Origin: a virus
Taxonomy: Duplodnaviria > Caudoviricetes
IMG/VR virus record: IMGVR_UViG_3300010163_000010
Span: 41,183-105,182 of that record
Direction: 5' to 3' (one strand)
Length of the DNA stretch: 64,000 bases
Position 1 is the stretch's first letter; every line of letters starts with the position of its first letter. Shown here one piece after another: positions 4,522-64,000 of the stretch. The position numbers were made by a program, and so were the translations under genes. The notes under the pieces were generated by a model. The model ran no database searches, was not told the origin of the DNA, and was given only the letters and a program-made list of their open reading frames with translations.

Positions 4522-5616
4522 ATGGCTATGGTAATCATTGGCTCTGAGAGCCTCATTCGTGATGAGGTTTTCACTAACTACCGGCAGGTGGCCGCCTTCA
4601 ACCTGGGCAAGGGGAAGGGCTCGGCCGTCAATTCCGTCGGTCGTGAGATCGAGTACGAGAAGCTGGGCTTCCTGCCCAATGAGGACACGATCAACGGCAT
4701 CAAGTCCGGTGACATCAAGCTCAAGAAGGTCATCAAGAAGGCCGTCAAGGTCCTGCACAAGCCGTCCATGGACAGCGAGTCCGCGACCCTGGGCTTGGGT
4801 GTTACGCAGCTGATCACCTTGATCACCTCTGACCGTAAGGCCAAGAAGGGGATTCCGGTGGTCGCTTTCATCACTGATCAGGATGACCCCGAGCGGAACA
4901 AGATCCTGGTCAAGTTCATCAAGGCGATCCTGGGCGAGTTCGGCATCAAGACTTTGGATAAGGCTAAGGTAATTAAGAAGATCTTCAAGAAGCGCAAGAA
5001 GGCGCGTGATCGTGTGGCCAGCTACTGCAGCAAGAACAAGAACGGCTGCAACCTCTCTCAGAAGGGGGTTGAGCTCAAGAAGCTCAACTTTGTCTACTTT
5101 GAGATGGAGCTGCGCCAGAGCGGCATGGTCGACGTGGACCTGGCTGACCTGGCCGATCGGGATGTGGTCAACGCCTGCGTGCGGACGCTGCTGAGGGTGT
5201 ATACCGCCGAGAACCTGAAGGATGCTTCCAGCAAGAGCATGGCCAAGAAGCTGGCCAAGAAGGATCGCCGGTCTGTTCGGGCCTACAATGATCTGCGGGA
5301 GATTCTCCTGACCGTCAACGCCAACCTGAAGCTGCCTAAGGTCAAGTATGGGCAGAAGAAGAAGAACGGCCGCGCGGTGAAGCCCAAGCTGAACTGCAAG
5401 AAGTTCAAGAAGTTCTTCATGAAGAAGGACAACCGCGCCCTGCTGGTGCTGATCTACTGGCACACCCTGGCCATTCTGGTCGGTGTCGAGGCTGGCTCTA
5501 AGGAGTACAACGCCCACATGAAGCTGCTGTCCTCTCTGTTCAAGCCGGAGTTCATCAAGCAGTATCTGACGTCGACGGCTGCGTACGTCAAGGGTGAGTC
5601 TCTCGCCACGAAGTAA
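4522..5616 (+). CDS. Very Lys-rich hypothetical protein, probably highly expressed
   Basis: 364 aa; AAGGAGG RBS; strong C/G-ending codon bias (AAG, ATC, CTG); terminator follows. Confidence 0.85.
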   Translation: MAMVIIGSESLIRDEVFTNYRQVAAFNLGKGKGSAVNSVGREIEYEKLGFLPNEDTINGIKSGDIKLKKVIKKAVKVLHKPSMDSESATLGLGVTQLITLITSDRKAKKGIPVVAFITDQDDPERNKILVKFIKAILGEFGIKTLDKAKVIKKIFKKRKKARDRVASYCSKNKNGCNLSQKGVELKKLNFVYFEMELRQSGMVDVDLADLADRDVVNACVRTLLRVYTAENLKDASSKSMAKKLAKKDRRSVRAYNDLREILLTVNANLKLPKVKYGQKKKNGRAVKPKLNCKKFKKFFMKKDNRALLVLIYWHTLAILVGVEAGSKEYNAHMKLLSSLFKPEFIKQYLTSTAAYVKGESLATK

Positions 5617-5626
5617 GTGACCGATG

Positions 5627-5663
5627 AGGTCGGGTCCAGGAGATTCTTGGGCCCGATCTTTTT
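5627..5663 (+). terminator. Rho-independent terminator
   Basis: AGGTCGGGTCCAGGA/TCTTGGGCCCGATCT stem plus T run. Confidence 0.8.
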
Positions 5664-5678
5664 ATCGCTGGAGGTGTT

Positions 5679-5972
5679 TTGATGCCTAAGGTTAAAGCCT
5701 TGTATGAGTGCCGGCAGTGTGGTGCTCATTTTATGTCTGATGAAAAGTATGACGTCAGAAATCTGGAGACTTATAAGGATCTGCAGTTTTTCGATCAGCT
5801 CAACGCGTTAGGGGAGCAAGTGCGGACTGAGACTGCTCCCGTGTCTTGGGCGAAGCATCTGTGGGTGCCGTTGAAGATTGTGCATAAGTGCAATGAGAGT
5901 GTTCACGGTGTATGCGATCTGATTGGGCTTTTGGAGCTCCCTGATGACTCCGGAGATAACGACAGATCGTGA
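5679..5972 (+). CDS. Small Zn-finger protein
   Basis: YECRQCG and HKC...VCDLIG; GGAGGTG RBS. Confidence 0.7.
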   Translation: MMPKVKALYECRQCGAHFMSDEKYDVRNLETYKDLQFFDQLNALGEQVRTETAPVSWAKHLWVPLKIVHKCNESVHGVCDLIGLLELPDDSGDNDRS

Positions 5973-31603: not shown

Positions 31604-31648
31604 AGTAAATCCACCTCCTTTAATATCTGATTTGAATTCCAACCCACA

Positions 31649-31659
31649 TATATACTATA
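31649..31659 (+). promoter_or_regulatory. Early-type promoter TATATACTATA
   Basis: Matches the recurring motif. Confidence 0.75.
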
Positions 31660-31701
31660 ATCATGAAGGTCAGAAGATCAAGATATAGGAGGTAGACAAT
31701 T

Positions 31702-33586: not shown

Positions 33587-33613
33587 CTGTTCTTACATCC
33601 GTTTGAACTATTC

Positions 33614-33624
33614 TATATACTATT
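33614..33624 (+). promoter_or_regulatory. Early-type promoter TATATACTATT
   Basis: Variant of the recurring motif. Confidence 0.65.
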
Positions 33625-52975: not shown

Positions 52976-54154
52976 ATGGCTGTTAAGAAGAAGACGACGA
53001 AGAGTAAGAAGTCGGCCCCGACCCCGACCGCGCGGTCGATTGTCAGTGGCATCAACAAGAGCATCATCGCTGGGCTGAAGACCGCTCATTTGCCGGCGTT
53101 CAGCGAGCTCTCGATTCAGCCGAATCAGCTCAGCTTGGCGTTCAAGGGCGAGCGGTATCTGGAGGCCGTTCTCGGCGATACCAATCACCGGTTCTATGAG
53201 CATCTGGTCTTCTCGTCCATCTACGACGTTGCGGTGAACATGGTTCAGCAGAAGATTGCCGCGCCCAACGTTCAGATGCCTGGTGTGTGGACTCATATCA
53301 TGGTGAACTCTCTTGCGTCTCGACTTCTCGAGGATGTGACCTATACAACCGCAGATGGTAACGAGGCCAAAGCTCTCTTTGTTGTTAAGGCCGAGGTTAC
53401 CGCTCCGGTCATAACCTCGGAAAATGTCCTTACGGAGTCCGAGCTCTACAGCTTCCCGCCCAATCTTCGTATGGCGTATGTCGACTATACTCCCAAAGTG
53501 TTTGTCGACTTGCTGGATGGGTTAGTTGCAGAGATGCTTTCGCAAATGGAGTTCTTTGCTCTGTCGAATTACACGCCGCATACGATCCTTCCGGATAACG
53601 ATACCATTCCGTCTCTTCGTGGTTATCCGGGGTATCTCAAGGCATATATGGGAGACGATGTGAGCAACTGGTACAACGGAATCAAAGATATTATTATGCA
53701 TGGGGAGATCTCCTTCGAAGATCAGCTCCGGGAGTTCACTGATACTATCATCGTTGATTTCGTGAACGCTATTATCATGGGGATTATGTACGGCGGTGTG
53801 TCTAAAGAGACTACGTTGAAGCTGCGGAAAATTAAGATTTCCCCCAGAGTGGATGAGATGTATATTGACATTCTGGATCCGAAACTCACGATGCCGTGTT
53901 TGATCACGTACGACGTTGGCGATGGTAGCGATCCGTTGTTTACCGTTTTCAACATTATTCCCAAGTATTTGATCGAGTTGTTTACAGAGGATAAGCCGAC
54001 ACAGACAGCAAAGCGGTTTGTGAATAAGCAGATCAATGATGCGCAGACCGCATTGACCCGGTTGTGTTTTGATATCGTTACAGCCGAGATGCTTGGGCGG
54101 GCTTGTCAGTTTATCGACGACCCGGAAGCCGTCGAGTCTGACGACGCAAATTGA
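52976..54154 (+). CDS. Hypothetical protein
   Basis: AAGGAGGT RBS before ATG 52976; basic N-terminal tail. Confidence 0.8.
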   Translation: MAVKKKTTKSKKSAPTPTARSIVSGINKSIIAGLKTAHLPAFSELSIQPNQLSLAFKGERYLEAVLGDTNHRFYEHLVFSSIYDVAVNMVQQKIAAPNVQMPGVWTHIMVNSLASRLLEDVTYTTADGNEAKALFVVKAEVTAPVITSENVLTESELYSFPPNLRMAYVDYTPKVFVDLLDGLVAEMLSQMEFFALSNYTPHTILPDNDTIPSLRGYPGYLKAYMGDDVSNWYNGIKDIIMHGEISFEDQLREFTDTIIVDFVNAIIMGIMYGGVSKETTLKLRKIKISPRVDEMYIDILDPKLTMPCLITYDVGDGSDPLFTVFNIIPKYLIELFTEDKPTQTAKRFVNKQINDAQTALTRLCFDIVTAEMLGRACQFIDDPEAVESDDAN

Positions 54155-54156
54155 TC

Positions 54157-54205
54157 TATATACTATAAGTGTGACCATGAGGATGTGTTCTTGTGGTCAC
54201 ACTTA
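54157..54205 (+). promoter_or_regulatory. Early-type promoter with a 5' leader hairpin
   Basis: TATATACTATA at 54157-54167; TAAGTGTGACCATGAGGA/TTCTTGTGGTCACACTTA. Confidence 0.7.
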
Positions 54206-58825: not shown

Positions 58826-60856
58826 ATGGGTAAAGGTAAAATGTCCAATCAGGAAAAGGCAATCCTGAAAAGAGCCAAGACGTTTCACTATGAGACGGAT
58901 CGTCTTGGTGCAAGTTCGTTGATGATCCAGCAGTCCCACACCAACAGCAGCCGCTGCATTATGTCGGCTAACCAGCTTCGCGATGCTGTCAGCATTAAGG
59001 ATCCCGAGCAGCCGCTGGTTCCCACTGGGTTCGAGAACGTTCTCGCGGGGTTCTCGCACATGCTCAATCCGGCTGACGCTGACTACGAGGTTGTGGCGAA
59101 GTTCGTGAAGAATGACTACAACTACGTTATTATCGGGTTTGATAAGAAGCATCGGCGCTATCATGCCTGGAAACGGGTGGAGATGGAGGAGCATTCGGAG
59201 GGGTTCTCTACCCGGTATAATAACAACTTTATCGATTCCCTTGAAGTTGGAGATAAGATCCACAAGGGCGATATGGTTCAGAAGTCCACAAACTTCGATA
59301 AGTCCATGAACTACGCCTATGGCAAGAATGTCAACGTTGTCTATATGGTAACGACCAATGTCTATGAGGATGGCATTTTGGCCATGAATGGCGTCGATCA
59401 GATGTTCAACACCTTTAGGTCATATACACTGGAGATCAATCTTGCCGATAACGAAATCCCGATTAACTGGTATGGCGATAAGGATCACTACCAGGGGATT
59501 CCGATGGTTGGCGAGAAGTGTCGTAAGGGCTATGCGGCTATTGTTCGGCGGGCCGATAACTACAAAGCCATGTATGACCTGAAAGCCAAGCGTATGCGGC
59601 ACATCGAGCGTGGGGACCGGCCGTACTATATGCATGGCCGAGTGATCGATATCGATATTCTCACAAACAAAGACCCCGCAAAGATGCTGGAGATTGGTGC
59701 AACACATCAGATCAACCAGTTGTACCAAGAGCAGCAGGATTACTATCGCAACCTCTACCAGTATATGCAGGATATTGTAGATGGTGCTGACGATGGGGGG
59801 TACACCTATACCGACGACTTCAGCATTATCTGTGAAGAGGCGCATGATTTCGTAGACTCCTCGGCATTCATGGCTGATAATAAGGATACCATCTATGGTA
59901 ATACCAAGATCATACTCCACATTCTTGATGAGGAGAAGATGATCGTTGGTTCTAAGTTTGTCGGCCGTTGCGGGAACAAGGGGGTCATTGCCAAGATCCT
60001 TCCGCCCGAGAAATCCTGGCACATGGAGGATGGCACGCCTATTCACTTTGTAGTAGCTACGCTTGGTGTCATTGGCCGATTGAATCAGTCTCAGCTATAT
60101 GAGCATTCGGCCAATGAGTTAGGTGCTACAGCAGTAAAAGCTATGAAGCAGACCAATAGCCTTAAGGAGAAAGGCAAGATTATCTATAAACTGCTGAAGT
60201 ATCTGAATCCAGACGAGGCTAAAGCGTTCAAGGCTTATTATGAGGCCCTTACTGATGATGAGAAGGCGAAGTACTGCAAGAAGCGGGAGCGTCTTGGCAT
60301 TCGGATTGTCCAAGACCCGATAGACAACGCCAACATTCTTGACTTTGCTGAAGCCTATGAGACGTTTCCGCCTAACTATCAGCACGTTATCTTTGAGGAT
60401 GGAACCAAGTCCTTGCGCAAGGTTCTGTGTGCGAAGATGTTCTATGTGCGATTGAAACAGGACCCGCTGGAAAAGTATTCTTCTCGGTCGAAGGGGCCGG
60501 TGAATCCGCTAACTACGTTACCGTCGAAGTCTAGTCTGCATAAGAAGTTCTTGGCTCCTCATTCCGATGTCCCGGTTCGGTTTGGCGAGATGGAGCTGGA
60601 GCTCTTGATGACCATGTGCAATCACCCGGCGGCTGTTGCTGACTTTATGACTGAAAACTCCACCAGCTATGAGGCTAAGTTGGCTTTGGCTCGGCATGAA
60701 TATATGGGTAACTTTGATGAAGAGGCTGATATGTCTGAGGTTGTGATGACGAGCAAGAAGAATGTTGAGTTGATCACGGCCTATATCGAGCCGCTTGGAA
60801 CGGAGATTGAGCTCGAGATTGAAACCGCTCCTGACGATGAGTACTTTGAGGCGTAA
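58826..60856 (+). CDS. Split RNA polymerase beta subunit, C-terminal half (non-virion RNAP type)
   Basis: NSSRCIM..NQ, YGKN, YEDG, GSKFVGRCGNKGVI, GRLN, RLKQ, RFGEME; early promoter. Confidence 0.92.
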   Translation: MGKGKMSNQEKAILKRAKTFHYETDRLGASSLMIQQSHTNSSRCIMSANQLRDAVSIKDPEQPLVPTGFENVLAGFSHMLNPADADYEVVAKFVKNDYNYVIIGFDKKHRRYHAWKRVEMEEHSEGFSTRYNNNFIDSLEVGDKIHKGDMVQKSTNFDKSMNYAYGKNVNVVYMVTTNVYEDGILAMNGVDQMFNTFRSYTLEINLADNEIPINWYGDKDHYQGIPMVGEKCRKGYAAIVRRADNYKAMYDLKAKRMRHIERGDRPYYMHGRVIDIDILTNKDPAKMLEIGATHQINQLYQEQQDYYRNLYQYMQDIVDGADDGGYTYTDDFSIICEEAHDFVDSSAFMADNKDTIYGNTKIILHILDEEKMIVGSKFVGRCGNKGVIAKILPPEKSWHMEDGTPIHFVVATLGVIGRLNQSQLYEHSANELGATAVKAMKQTNSLKEKGKIIYKLLKYLNPDEAKAFKAYYEALTDDEKAKYCKKRERLGIRIVQDPIDNANILDFAEAYETFPPNYQHVIFEDGTKSLRKVLCAKMFYVRLKQDPLEKYSSRSKGPVNPLTTLPSKSSLHKKFLAPHSDVPVRFGEMELELLMTMCNHPAAVADFMTENSTSYEAKLALARHEYMGNFDEEADMSEVVMTSKKNVELITAYIEPLGTEIELEIETAPDDEYFEA

Positions 60857-60860
60857 GAAA

Positions 60861-60896
60861 TGTGGGAGGGGCTTCGGCTCCTCCCACACCAGTTTT
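60861..60896 (+). terminator. Rho-independent terminator
   Basis: TGTGGGAGGGGC-TTCG-GCTCCTCCCACA. Confidence 0.8.
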
Positions 60897-60914
60897 ATGA
60901 AGATTTAATTTATC

Positions 60915-60925
60915 TATATACTATA
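60915..60925 (+). promoter_or_regulatory. Early-type promoter TATATACTATA
   Basis: Matches the recurring motif. Confidence 0.75.
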
Positions 60926-60970: not shown

Positions 60971-63475
60971 ATGAGTAGGAAGAAGCACAGACTCAACAAT
61001 AACAGGCGTAACGGGTCGAGCAGCCCGACCTTTGGCGGGGGAGATCCCGCGAGTATCTTGTCCACGACTGCTCCGCGGATGGTCGTCGACACCACCGATC
61101 CCAGCAGTCCGATGGCCGACATTCTGAACACGCACACCCAGGGCGTAGAAGACTGGTCTATGAAAAAGGATTCTGATGGGTTCTGCGTGCTGCAGTTGAC
61201 GGCTGAGGGCTTTGAGGCCTTGGATGAGGTTCGGGTTCGTCGGTCCAAGAAGTTCTCCAAGAAGGTTGAGGACATCGTTGTCAACCAAGACCCCTATGAG
61301 AACTACAGCCCCAATGCCGCTATCACCATGCTCGACCAGGCGGTTGGTATGGTTAAGGGCGGCAAGTACAAGAAGGCTCTGGATAAGAGGGACAATAACA
61401 TCATCGATGAGTTGACCGATACGTTCCTGAACATGGAGTCGACCTTGCCGAACTTTGATCGGGTGTGCGAGGCGGTTCTGAAGTTGATTCGGGTCGGTAA
61501 AAGCTTCTATGAGTACTATCCGGATGACCTGTATATTGACAATGAACTGTACGATCGGGTGCTCGCAAAGTATCTCGGTTATGGTTTCACCGAGCCCACT
61601 GGATATGTACAGGCGGGGAAGAGCAAGACTGCCATCAGGTACCCGCTTTTGCACAATAACATGGACAAGAGCTATGTTCTGCGGAGCGGTGACGATATTC
61701 CGGAAGGCGTTAAGGAAACCACTAAGGTTGAAGATTGGCTGATTCGATGCTATAAGGTCATTGGGGCCACTTCTGAGACCGAGGTGGAGCTGGAGCTCTC
61801 TCCGAAGATCGACGGCATCTCGGTTAATGGCACTATCAGAACTGGCAAGAAGTGTGATGCTCTGTTCAATCCGCAGACTCGCGGTGATGAGACTGACTCC
61901 ATGAAGATTATTGGCATGGATGGCATTCAGTTAGGCTACGGCCGTGATAAAGAGATCGAATTCGGTCTGCAGCTTGAAGCCTTCGTGACCAATGATGACA
62001 TGAGAGGCGTGGCTGAGTATCTGAAGCTTGATCGACCTTATGCCAGCAACAGACATGCAGCTTCCGGAATCATCAGTCGGCTGTGTGCCAAGGAAGACGA
62101 TGAGCTGCTCCCGTTCCTCAGCTTCTATCCGATTGAGACGATGGGATTGGATAAGAGCTATGTTGAGCGGATGAAGTTCATCAAGGATTTTGAGGTTGTT
62201 CCGAGTGATATGATTGAGCGGAAGATTATTAAGGGCAATCTCAAAGAGCTGCTGGATAAGATCGAAAAGCAGTTCAGCAAGTTCGCCGAGAAGCGTGAGA
62301 GTTTGAGTTATGCGATCGATGGCATGGTTATCACATTTGTTGATGATGATTATCAGAAAGCGTTGAGCCGCAATGGCAGAACCAATAAGTATCAGTTGGC
62401 GTTGAAGTTTGATCCGGCCAGTGCTGTTGGTGTCGTCAAGGGCATTCACCTGGATTCTGGTAATAAAGGTTTTCGGACTATTCAGGTGGATCTGAAGCAT
62501 CCGGTGTTCTTGGATGGCGTTCGGTATGATCATGTACAAGTAGGCTCTGCGGCTTTGTTTGAGGACTTGCATCTACGGGAAGATTCGACCGTAAATGTTC
62601 ACAGGGTCGGCGATGTCATCCCGGCTATCAGTGTGATTCATGCCGGTAATGGGAAATTGCTGAATCTTCCTGAGCTTTGTCCGCAGTGTGGGAAATCCTT
62701 GACGATCAAGAACAAGAAGCTGTACTGCCCGAACATTGATTGCCGAGGAAATCTCTCTGGCCGAATTGCCGGGTTCTTGACTGGCATTGGTATGATCGGT
62801 TATGCGGATACGTTCATTAACAAGATGATCGATACCTGTAAGGTAACTTCTCTTGCTGATCTCTTTGAGCTTACAGAGGATACCTTCAAGAGGAAGGGCT
62901 TGACAGGAAAGATCTATATGGAATTCCCGGCTGCATTGCAGGAGGCCATCTCGAAAACTGATGACTTCAAGATCGTTGGCTCTATCGGTATTCCGGACAT
63001 CGGCCCGGCTCGGGCCCGCGACATGTTGGAGGGCTGCGGCGGCTGGGATTACTTCCTTATGTATGTGAATGGTAAACTTGATCGCGGTGAACGTAATAGT
63101 GCAAGAAACTCTCTTGCTGGATTAACTAAAAACATTCAAAAGCTCCTGGATCCCCGGTTGTTTGCACACATTAACGAATGCAAGCCGATCATCACGTATA
63201 ACTTTAACACTTTACGTGTTGGTCACACAGGAGTTACCCTTAGTGATGATGTGGTTAAGGTGTGTCGGGATATTGGTGCGATTGTCGTTGATGGTAAAGC
63301 ATTCGATGTATTGATTACAGGCGACTATGCGTCTACTAGTGAGAAGATGAGGGTCGCTGAGAAAAATAATATCGATATTTATGAAAGTAACGATTTCATT
63401 CAACATTATAGCACTGTGGCTGGTTCTATTACTCTTACCGATAGTGGGCATTGGGTACAGCAGAAACAAGCCTAG
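60971..63475 (+). CDS. ligA: NAD+-dependent DNA ligase with an N-terminal extension
   Basis: YY......D..YD, KIDG adenylation motif, TRGD, SNRHAASG, IDGMV, ALKF, GDVIP, CPQC...C....C Zn finger, HhH, BRCT-like end. Confidence 0.92.
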   Translation: MSRKKHRLNNNRRNGSSSPTFGGGDPASILSTTAPRMVVDTTDPSSPMADILNTHTQGVEDWSMKKDSDGFCVLQLTAEGFEALDEVRVRRSKKFSKKVEDIVVNQDPYENYSPNAAITMLDQAVGMVKGGKYKKALDKRDNNIIDELTDTFLNMESTLPNFDRVCEAVLKLIRVGKSFYEYYPDDLYIDNELYDRVLAKYLGYGFTEPTGYVQAGKSKTAIRYPLLHNNMDKSYVLRSGDDIPEGVKETTKVEDWLIRCYKVIGATSETEVELELSPKIDGISVNGTIRTGKKCDALFNPQTRGDETDSMKIIGMDGIQLGYGRDKEIEFGLQLEAFVTNDDMRGVAEYLKLDRPYASNRHAASGIISRLCAKEDDELLPFLSFYPIETMGLDKSYVERMKFIKDFEVVPSDMIERKIIKGNLKELLDKIEKQFSKFAEKRESLSYAIDGMVITFVDDDYQKALSRNGRTNKYQLALKFDPASAVGVVKGIHLDSGNKGFRTIQVDLKHPVFLDGVRYDHVQVGSAALFEDLHLREDSTVNVHRVGDVIPAISVIHAGNGKLLNLPELCPQCGKSLTIKNKKLYCPNIDCRGNLSGRIAGFLTGIGMIGYADTFINKMIDTCKVTSLADLFELTEDTFKRKGLTGKIYMEFPAALQEAISKTDDFKIVGSIGIPDIGPARARDMLEGCGGWDYFLMYVNGKLDRGERNSARNSLAGLTKNIQKLLDPRLFAHINECKPIITYNFNTLRVGHTGVTLSDDVVKVCRDIGAIVVDGKAFDVLITGDYASTSEKMRVAEKNNIDIYESNDFIQHYSTVAGSITLTDSGHWVQQKQA

Positions 63476-63499
63476 TGGCAAGAACCACGAAAAACGTGC

Positions 63500-64000
63500 C
63501 GAAAACGTTCCTGATTGTTATGTGAACGGTAACGCTTCGGAAATGAAGCACACCATAACACATGAATAATAGGAACGAATCAGAGTTAGAGAATGTCTGT
63601 TTTCGGCGGCGTGTAGGCGCCTCTCTGGGTCTCCCTTGATTGGGACCCTCCGGGGAGGTCGCCAAGTCGTGGTTACTGCCTTGGTCCTTTGAGACAGTTT
63701 CCGGTCAGCAGGGGTGAAGAGAGACCCGCGAAAGAGCTTACAGGTGAGGCGGGTAAATGCTTAGGGCCCGGGTCCTTTGCATAAGAAAAGTGTCGAAACA
63801 CGTTCTTCGGGACGATGAAAGTATGAACTGTGCTTTGGCCGTGTTGATCCTTGAATCAAAGTGTTTATGAATTCGTCCGTGAAAGTCGGGCGTATCAGTT
63901 GCGGTGTGGATTCATTCGTGATCCCACCGCGAACACTTCAATATGGTAGCAATCGGGGTGCCCCATGAAGGCTCCCGGTTCTATAGACAAATGATTCAAG
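63500..64000 (+). ncRNA. Candidate large structured non-coding RNA (may run past the window end)
   Basis: No credible ORF; nested helices, e.g. GGGTCTC/GAGACCC, TGTAGGC/GCTTACA, GCCGTGTTGA/TCAATATGGT, GCGGTG/CACCGC, and closing GTCTGT/ATAGAC. Confidence 0.6.

Follow-up and report, generated by a model that had tools for sequence, protein, structure and literature searches.

The locus studied here raises the question of what a phage genome holds in the half kilobase of DNA that directly follows its DNA ligase gene. The window, by which we mean the whole stretch of 64,000 nucleotides that was analysed, covers bases 41183-105182 of a 105,182-bp IMG/VR virus record with a CheckV completeness of 41%. 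Non-coding DNA amounts to only about 3.9 kb in these 64 kb, and its largest gap is the element described below. This element looks like a large, conserved and structured non-coding RNA that is read from the plus strand and belongs to a previously uncatalogued class, here called type 1. It is placed among the following genes and signals.

58826-60856: split multisubunit RNA-polymerase beta-like gene (Pfam Rpb2_6), upstream of the ligase
60861-60888: terminator hairpin, preceding the promoter motif of the ligase
60913-60925, plus strand: TCTATATACTATA promoter motif before the ligase
60971-63475, plus strand: NAD-dependent DNA ligase of 834 aa (Pfam PF01653 and PF03120), the upstream neighbour of the element
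63476 to about 63985, plus strand: RNA element of about 510 nt, in the final 0.5 kb of the window

The stop codon of the ligase is found at 63475 and the region 63476-64000 comes directly after it. The last base of the window is contig base 105182, which puts the element at the extreme end of the record.

Phage lineage

About 200 relatives of the ligase were found, on metagenome contigs up to about 250 kb long. When compared with 50,697 GenBank phage records (tblastn) the ligase gave matches of less than 25% identity only, and neither the element (blastn) nor the product of the gene that follows it in related phages, referred to below as the HU/IHF-fold protein (tblastn), had a match among the GenBank phages. 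The source is a jumbo-phage lineage from which no member has been cultured, and the carriers of the type-1 element make up a single subclade of such phages, of about 230-260 kb. In the ligase tree, which has a midpoint root only, the four type-1 carriers form one group with a support of 92/92, and the ligases of the phages compared are only 47-59% identical. An earlier reading made from the sequence alone (hereafter the sequence-only reading) had taken Firmicute phages as its premise. This premise is not supported: the only hints to the host are bin labels (a Ruminococcus MAG and a Duncaniella record), and labels of that kind are a poor guide where phage contigs are concerned.

In the ligase about 250 aa (window 60971-61720) precede the adenylation domain, the Pfam match starting from residue 250, and this N-terminal extension is also kept in the phage homologues. 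For three relatives located on JAEEGI and JAEEGK contigs (L021, L022 and L023) the ligase matches end at query residue about 570-687, and the 206-kb contig JAEEGK010000085.1 presents two separate ligase matches (L022 and L023). In these three cases the ligase gene may be split, duplicated or interrupted.

Absence of a coding sequence

The sequence-only reading described more than 500 bp without a credible ORF, and this description was borne out, as no frame spans 63476-64000 with table 11, nor does one when any one of the stop codons is reassigned. When the homologues were compared in all six frames, no conservation at the protein level was seen. A 76-aa ORF on the minus strand (63435-63665) was rejected as a gene because it is not conserved, and an alternative genetic code or a hidden ORF was rejected by the reassigned-stop scan and the six-frame comparison. 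The plus strand folds with -201 kcal/mol, corresponding to z = -5.6 against dinucleotide shuffles, and the minus strand has z = -3.7 against shuffles of the same kind.

Comparison with known RNA families

The whole window was compared with Rfam 15 (4227 families) at the gathering score and no hits were obtained. The same result was found for the region 63300-64000 (701 bases) with E<=10 and permissive filters, and for seven related loci with E<=1. With ARAGORN neither the 64-kb window nor the 40 kb around the L006 copy yielded a tRNA or tmRNA. These results agree with the earlier statement that signatures of RNase P, tmRNA and group I or II introns are absent. The same statement left the choice between a member of a ROOL/GOLLD-like class and a new class; membership of ROOL or GOLLD is not supported, as there are no Rfam hits, and the new class is the part that stands. 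Adjacent tRNAs, whose presence was proposed as a check, were not found beside the element by ARAGORN.

ROOL (RF03087) was rejected, as its Rfam model is not matched and there are no tRNA neighbours, although a tRNA context is typical and not strictly defining. The Rfam models of GOLLD (RF01998), OLE (RF01071), HEARO (RF02033) and raiA (RF03072) are unmatched in the window and in the seven loci. Concerning group I and group II introns, there is no Rfam match and there are no flanking exons, the ligase having its own stop at 63475; in the homologues the downstream gene starts with an ATG and a ribosome-binding site of its own. RNase P RNA and tmRNA were matched neither by Rfam nor by ARAGORN. 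Since no Rfam match and no tRNA or tmRNA were found, the element is not ROOL, GOLLD, OLE, HEARO, raiA, RNase P, tmRNA or an intron, in so far as current models describe these.

The likeness to some of these families is nevertheless instructive. ROOL, whose function is unknown, is carried by phages and prophages of gut and rumen bacteria, and the typical setting of ROOL and GOLLD is a phage or prophage region, often near tRNA genes. Like ROOL, the element is a structured non-coding RNA of about 500-600 nt with many hairpins and conserved single-stranded blocks, but it is located away from tRNA genes and in a jumbo phage that has its own multisubunit RNA polymerase. With GOLLD it shares the condition of a large, ornate, phage-associated RNA of unknown function, although GOLLD has about 800 nt and is often tRNA-adjacent, whereas the element has about 510 nt and matches no model. 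HEARO, the omega-RNA of IscB, is similar in being a large structured RNA fixed just upstream of one protein gene, which suggests an RNA-protein pair. Unlike in HEARO, the neighbouring protein shows a tandem HU/IHF-like fold and lacks RuvC and HNH nuclease domains, and there is no transposon context. ROOL has been shown to form an oligomeric cage (PMC12286853).

Homologues of the element

Syntenic loci were gathered via the ligase relatives and were searched by nhmmer using the 525 nt of the window as query. Homologous copies were identified in L020 (2873-3382, E 2e-22) and in L006/L003 (6335-6977, E 7e-14); L003 and L006 are an identical sequence obtained from two samples and were counted as one member. 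The fourth member, L056 (about 5490-5950), comes from a contig of 125 kb that was assigned to a Ruminococcus MAG by binning, and was first spotted by eye and then confirmed by a covariance model with 130 bits. Among homologues the length of the element ranges from 460 to 640 nt.

The covariance model R1 scored 157 bits for L020, 153 for L006, 151 for the window and 130 for L056. In the window the match (E 4.5e-41) is located at 63665-63835, and the E values of the three homologues range from 6e-35 to 9e-43. There is a single copy per phage, the phage's own contig included. No new members were found by R1 in 79 pattern-derived viral loci, the L056 MAG alone was matched among 150 bacterial genomes of its family, and no copy was present in a complete 260-kb phage carrying the second type of RNA described below. 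Motif-pair pattern scans of viral contigs (30 and over 120 hits) were rejected, as all these hits were due to chance; nhmmer and R1 added nothing. The window copy presents the ordered blocks of type 1, which are UCGGCGGCG, AGUCGYGG, GRAGARA, AAUGC and AUAAGAAARGU, with the helices P5-P8 between them.

In the homologues the copy ends with a hairpin and the conserved GGUUCUAUA, the ATG of L006 being found about 50 nt further on. The window copy therefore ends at about 63985 and is essentially complete. It had been proposed to look for a continuation in the next window, but none exists, since the end of the window is the end of the contig and the element itself stops before it.

Structure and covariation

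The full-length structure model was curated by hand on the four distinct members and anchored on the conserved blocks, because RNAalifold on anchor-stitched full-length alignments was noisy. The parts of the model, all on the plus strand, are the following in the window.

63480-63497: 5' leader (AAGAAC..GAAAA..), starting 4-11 nt past the stop codon of whichever gene precedes
63498-63607: 5' domain, with P0 around the long hairpin P1 and the small hairpin P2
63498-63502 with 63603-63607: P0, in which G-C becomes A-U in L056
63506-63577: P1, with both sides changed in 4 of the 6 pairs of the closing stem
63581-63599: P2, a hairpin of differing sequence at the same place in three sequences
63616-63663: P4, a long hairpin closed by GGCG/CGCC, whose closing pairs covary (C-G/U-A, G-C/C-G)
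63665-63835: conserved core, comprising P5-P8 and near-invariant single-stranded blocks
63671-78 with 63695-702: P5
63703-23: near-invariant single-stranded block CGGUCAGCAGG..GAAGAGA, a purine-rich junction
63724-29 with 63749-54, inner part 63737-40 with 63745-48: P6, two-tiered
63757-82: P7
63781-97: near-invariant single-stranded block AUAAGAAAAGUGUCGAA of 17 nt, AUAAGAAAAGURUCGAA across members
63801-14: P8
63825-35: near-invariant single-stranded block GAACUGUGCUU
63836-63950: variable 3' domain, of about 90 to about 200 nt among homologues
63868-63897: P9, a bulged hairpin whose stem covaries in 4 of 4 sequences (lower part C-G to U-A)
63901-63930: window-specific hairpin in the variable 3' domain
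63945-49: conserved GGUAG in the variable 3' domain
63951-58 with 63973-80: P10, terminal hairpin of 8 bp, present in 4 of 4 members
63977-85: conserved GGUUCUAUA, overlapping P10 and kept in the window, L020 and L006
63986-64000: first part of the spacer that leads to the next gene, truncated by the contig end

Fourteen helices are common to the four members in the hand alignment. Canonical pairs occupy 268 of its 270 cells, and 42 of the 77 pairs are changed on both sides, with the reservation that in P2, the inner part of P7 and P8 the sequences are unalignable and 'covariation' means there a hairpin at the same place and not site-wise substitution. Of the cells 36 are G.U, and as these would be A.C on the other strand they fix the plus strand as the folded one.

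A test free of the hand alignment was carried out with the 34 pairs of P5-P8 on an unedited MAFFT alignment (A5) of the 171-nt core. The proportion of paired cells was 86.4%, against 37-44% when the partners were slid by 1-3 columns, and was reached by none of 500 shuffles. Thirteen pairs were changed on both sides, against 1-3 after sliding, a number reached by one of the 500 shuffles. The covariation score was reached by 0-1 of 500 shuffles and the number of further pair types by 15 of 500.

Outside the core, the interior of P4 is a long stem whose sequence differs in each homologue, and the hairpin lies between two invariant blocks, UCGGCGGCG (63603-63611) and AGUCGUGG (63665-63672), which may pair with each other as a tentative P3. 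The 5' leader is kept in the window, L020 and L006 despite their differing upstream genes and is absent in L056; it may be a processing site or the pairing partner of the 3' GGUUCU. Near-invariant unpaired blocks of 8-17 nt, as seen in the aligned members, are what would be expected of tertiary contacts, an active site or a binding site. As candidate long-range pairings we considered 5' AGAACC with 3' GGUUCU, UAGAACU (63823-29) with GGUUCUA, GGUAG with CUACC in P5, and the junction GGAAG with CUUCU after 63835.

Part of the helices named in the sequence-only reading belong to this common structure. CGTTCCT/AGGAACG (63506-63577) is P1 and CGTCCG/CGGGCG (63874-63892) is P9, and both show compensatory changes in homologues. 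The helix GCCGTGTTGA/TCAATATGGT has analogous counterparts in L006 and L056, but its register is not conserved. The helix 63591-63600 with 63983-97, which was thought to close an outer domain of about 405 nt, is present in the window but conserved in no homologue; its 3' strand falls past the point where conservation stops, and the proposed domain is not supported. TGTAGGC/GCTTACA and GGGTCTC/GAGACCC are present in the window and in no homologue, and clash with the covarying local helices P4 and P6. The hairpin GTGT-CGAA-ACAC, also present in the window, is conserved in no homologue, and AAGTGTT/AACACTT and GCGGTG/CACCGC proved to be window-specific and are placed within the variable region.

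The downstream gene and a second type of RNA

The gene located upstream of the element varies among the phages. L020 has two genes between the ligase and the element, namely a 131-aa ORF and a gene encoding a 110-aa LPD28-domain protein (Pfam E 2.5e-27), both within L020:2141-2872. In L056 an ORF of about 68 aa, HTH-like by eye, is found at about 5284-5490 between the ligase and the RNA. As the genes between ligase and element differ in L020 and L056, the element is not tied to the ligase gene as such.

The gene encoding the HU/IHF-fold protein is found directly downstream wherever the contig reaches (L006, L056 and all the type-2 loci described below); L020 and the window end before this gene, and the adjacency in type 1 rests on L006 and L056. 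In the type-1 homologues long enough to show it the gene starts about 45-50 nt past the GGUUCUAUA motif. Its positions are:

L006:6978-7634
L002:8712-9446
L056:5972 onwards

The protein has 210-260 aa and is acidic, with a pI of about 4.8. It has no Pfam or PHROG family, and Foldseek against the PDB gave no hit at E<=0.001. The AlphaFold model (pLDDT 85.7) presents a tandem helix-plus-beta-ribbon fold which, when compared by VIA-align, reached Z 7.2 with single-chain IHF, Z 4.5-4.7 with HU/Hbb for the N-terminal half, and Z about 10 with some microtubule-inner proteins. A conserved proline is located near the tip of each beta-arm, and the protein is confined to this phage clade.

All 12 loci that have the HU/IHF-fold gene also have a non-coding gap of at least 480 nt before it, the structure of which was tested in some of them, and no gap is found in L016/L017, which are ligase loci without this gene. 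In more distant relatives the same junction between the ligase and the HU/IHF-fold gene is occupied by another RNA, type 2, with sizes of 480-630 nt. The type-2 loci are listed below; L005 was grouped with L004 as a type-2 carrier.

L002:8209-8711
L004:6221-6733
L010:5278-5837
L013:5425-5905
L019:5170-5659
L193:1876-2501

The core of type 2 has the form ..AUAAGUAGNUGGGUA..CUGAUGNCGAAAGAGGU..ACUUCGUGGGU.. and RNAalifold predicted 43 pairs in it, both sides being changed in 27 of them. Type 2 has no Rfam hit. Comparing type 1 with type 2, nhmmer --max gave no hit and the covariance model with the filters off gave nothing above noise.

Putative promoters and transcript ends

A phage promoter-like consensus, TCTATATACTATA, is found upstream of at least 12 genes of the window, at a distance of 15-90 nt and often just past a terminator hairpin. 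Its copies include:

31648-31660
33610-33622
54153-54165
60911-60925
at least 8 more

A promoter variant, CTATATATTATA, is used in a 230-kb relative. The motif at 60913 is presumed, from its sequence, to be the start of the transcript that runs into the element. A scan for terminators and sigma-70-like promoters within 63476-63950 found none. Since neither a terminator nor a recognisable promoter separates the element from the ligase stop, transcription would take place by read-through from the ligase promoter at 60913, and the RNA would be the tail of the ligase transcript. This transcript would end at the hairpin P10, which is probably the 3' end or terminator of the RNA; the tail of P10, UUCUAUAG, has few U and no clear U-tract, and P10 was not flagged by the terminator scan. 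The conserved 5' leader may mark the site where the RNA is cut free from the mRNA.

Positions 63980-63992 agree with the TCTATATACTATA consensus at 9 of 13 positions, in the first half only, and the same half-match exists in L020 and L006. By this resemblance the GGUUCUAUA motif may serve the next gene as promoter. In the type-2 loci L013, L010 and L002, ATAT-rich motifs that look more clearly like promoters are placed between the RNA and the HU/IHF-fold gene. Given such motifs between the element and the HU/IHF-fold gene, the latter may be transcribed without the element.

Possible roles of the element

Few large (over 400 nt) structured RNA classes are known in bacteria and phages, and those understood or imaged so far have all proved to be ribozymes, cores of ribonucleoproteins or, in a recent case, an RNA-only cage. 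The element has the marks of a large functional RNA, such as helices kept by compensatory change, invariant unpaired blocks and no known family. Moreover it is found beside the HU/IHF-fold gene in every locus that reaches past the element, which argues for a functional tie to that gene. We are therefore inclined, at roughly even odds, to suggest from the conserved fold that it is a discrete RNA acting as such and linked to the HU/IHF-fold gene. The folded RNA would act as a scaffold, a ribonucleoprotein partner or a ribozyme and not as a simple leader; speculatively, it could help to organise or regulate phage DNA-protein complexes. Against a discrete RNA it must be said that there are only four distinct members, that transcription, RNA ends and processing are all deduced from the sequence, that P10 lacks a clear U-tract, and that the acidic nature of the HU/IHF-fold protein (pI 4.8) disfavours direct binding of RNA.

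The constant presence of one gene directly downstream would suit a cis-acting leader, the main alternative, just as well as a trans-acting RNA. The element would then be a leader or intercistronic regulator of the HU/IHF-fold gene, contained in its mRNA via read-through past P10, and would govern translation or the termination at P10, perhaps with the encoded nucleic-acid-binding protein as autoregulator or in response to a ligand. Such a role would suit the distance of at most 50 nt between element and gene in L006 and L056, the two type-1 loci with sequence past the element, whichever gene lies upstream, the gap of at least 480 nt in all 12 loci having the gene and in neither L016 nor L017 without it, and the presence of two unrelated RNA types at the same position. 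Inspection of the sequence also indicates that P10 could alternate with a pairing of GGUUCU to UAGAAC (63823-29) or to the 5' AAGAAC. The autoregulatory mRNA leaders of phage T4 gene 32 and of ribosomal proteins are simple and have tens to about 200 nt. The element is similar to them as a structured RNA directly 5' of a nucleic-acid-binding-protein gene, but it differs in its size of about 510 nt, its at least 14 helices and the promoter-like motif between element and gene. With about 500 nt and numerous invariant unpaired stretches it greatly exceeds the known leaders of bacteria and phages in size and intricacy, and the promoter half-match before the gene, together with its clearer counterparts in L013, L010 and L002, also speaks against a leader, a role which we regard as possible but rather doubtful. 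We find it quite unlikely that the element is a passive 3' untranslated tail, that is, a stable structure with no further function that ends and protects the mRNA of the ligase operon and insulates it from the next promoter. Its position at the end of a transcription unit, with a terminal hairpin and a promoter-like motif directly after, would agree with such a tail, but protection needs one hairpin and not 500 nt, and blocks of 11-17 nt are invariant although the ligases are 47-59% identical, the helices being kept by compensatory change.

The conservation could also be that of a DNA-level element, such as a replication origin, a packaging site or hairpin promoters. Replication origins often use DNA-bending proteins such as those of the HU/IHF type, and the element adjoins a replication gene (the ligase) and the HU/IHF-fold gene. 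This explanation has very little probability in our opinion, as the 36 G.U cells in the conserved helices are A.C on the other strand, which means that a double-stranded cruciform is not conserved. In addition, the cumulative GC skew of the 230-kb relative has its minimum near 74 kb while the element is at 151.4 kb, where there is no extremum, and reading the sequences by eye revealed no iterons. More improbable still is a copy of a known large RNA family (ROOL, GOLLD or a group I intron) so diverged that the covariance models miss it. Such families are diverse and their phage copies can be atypical, but no Rfam hit was obtained even at E<=10 for the 701 bases or at E<=1 for the seven loci, the ligase ORF has its own stop with no flanking exons, and there are no tRNA genes near.

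Returning to the discrete RNA, we can also advance, with considerable reserve, a wider hypothesis. In this clade of uncultured gut and rumen jumbo phages a fixed 'RNA slot' directly before the HU/IHF-fold gene would be occupied by an RNA of about 500 nt with a complex fold, drawn from at least two unrelated kinds. These RNAs would be catalytic or would form a self-assembling or scaffolding particle, as ROOL and GOLLD, possibly with the HU/IHF-fold protein, in order to organise or protect the phage DNA. If true, this would be a new class of functional large RNA in viruses. The fixed protein-gene neighbour and the unrelated RNA at the same spot in sister phages make a testable system, consisting of the RNA by itself or together with the HU/IHF-fold protein, for the roles of large phage RNAs.

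Other non-coding gaps

In the 230-kb relative (G003) a crude ORF call indicated four other non-coding gaps, of 750-920 nt, at the following positions.

L183:15385-16305
L181:8028-8941
L189:17153-17939
L188:3122-3870
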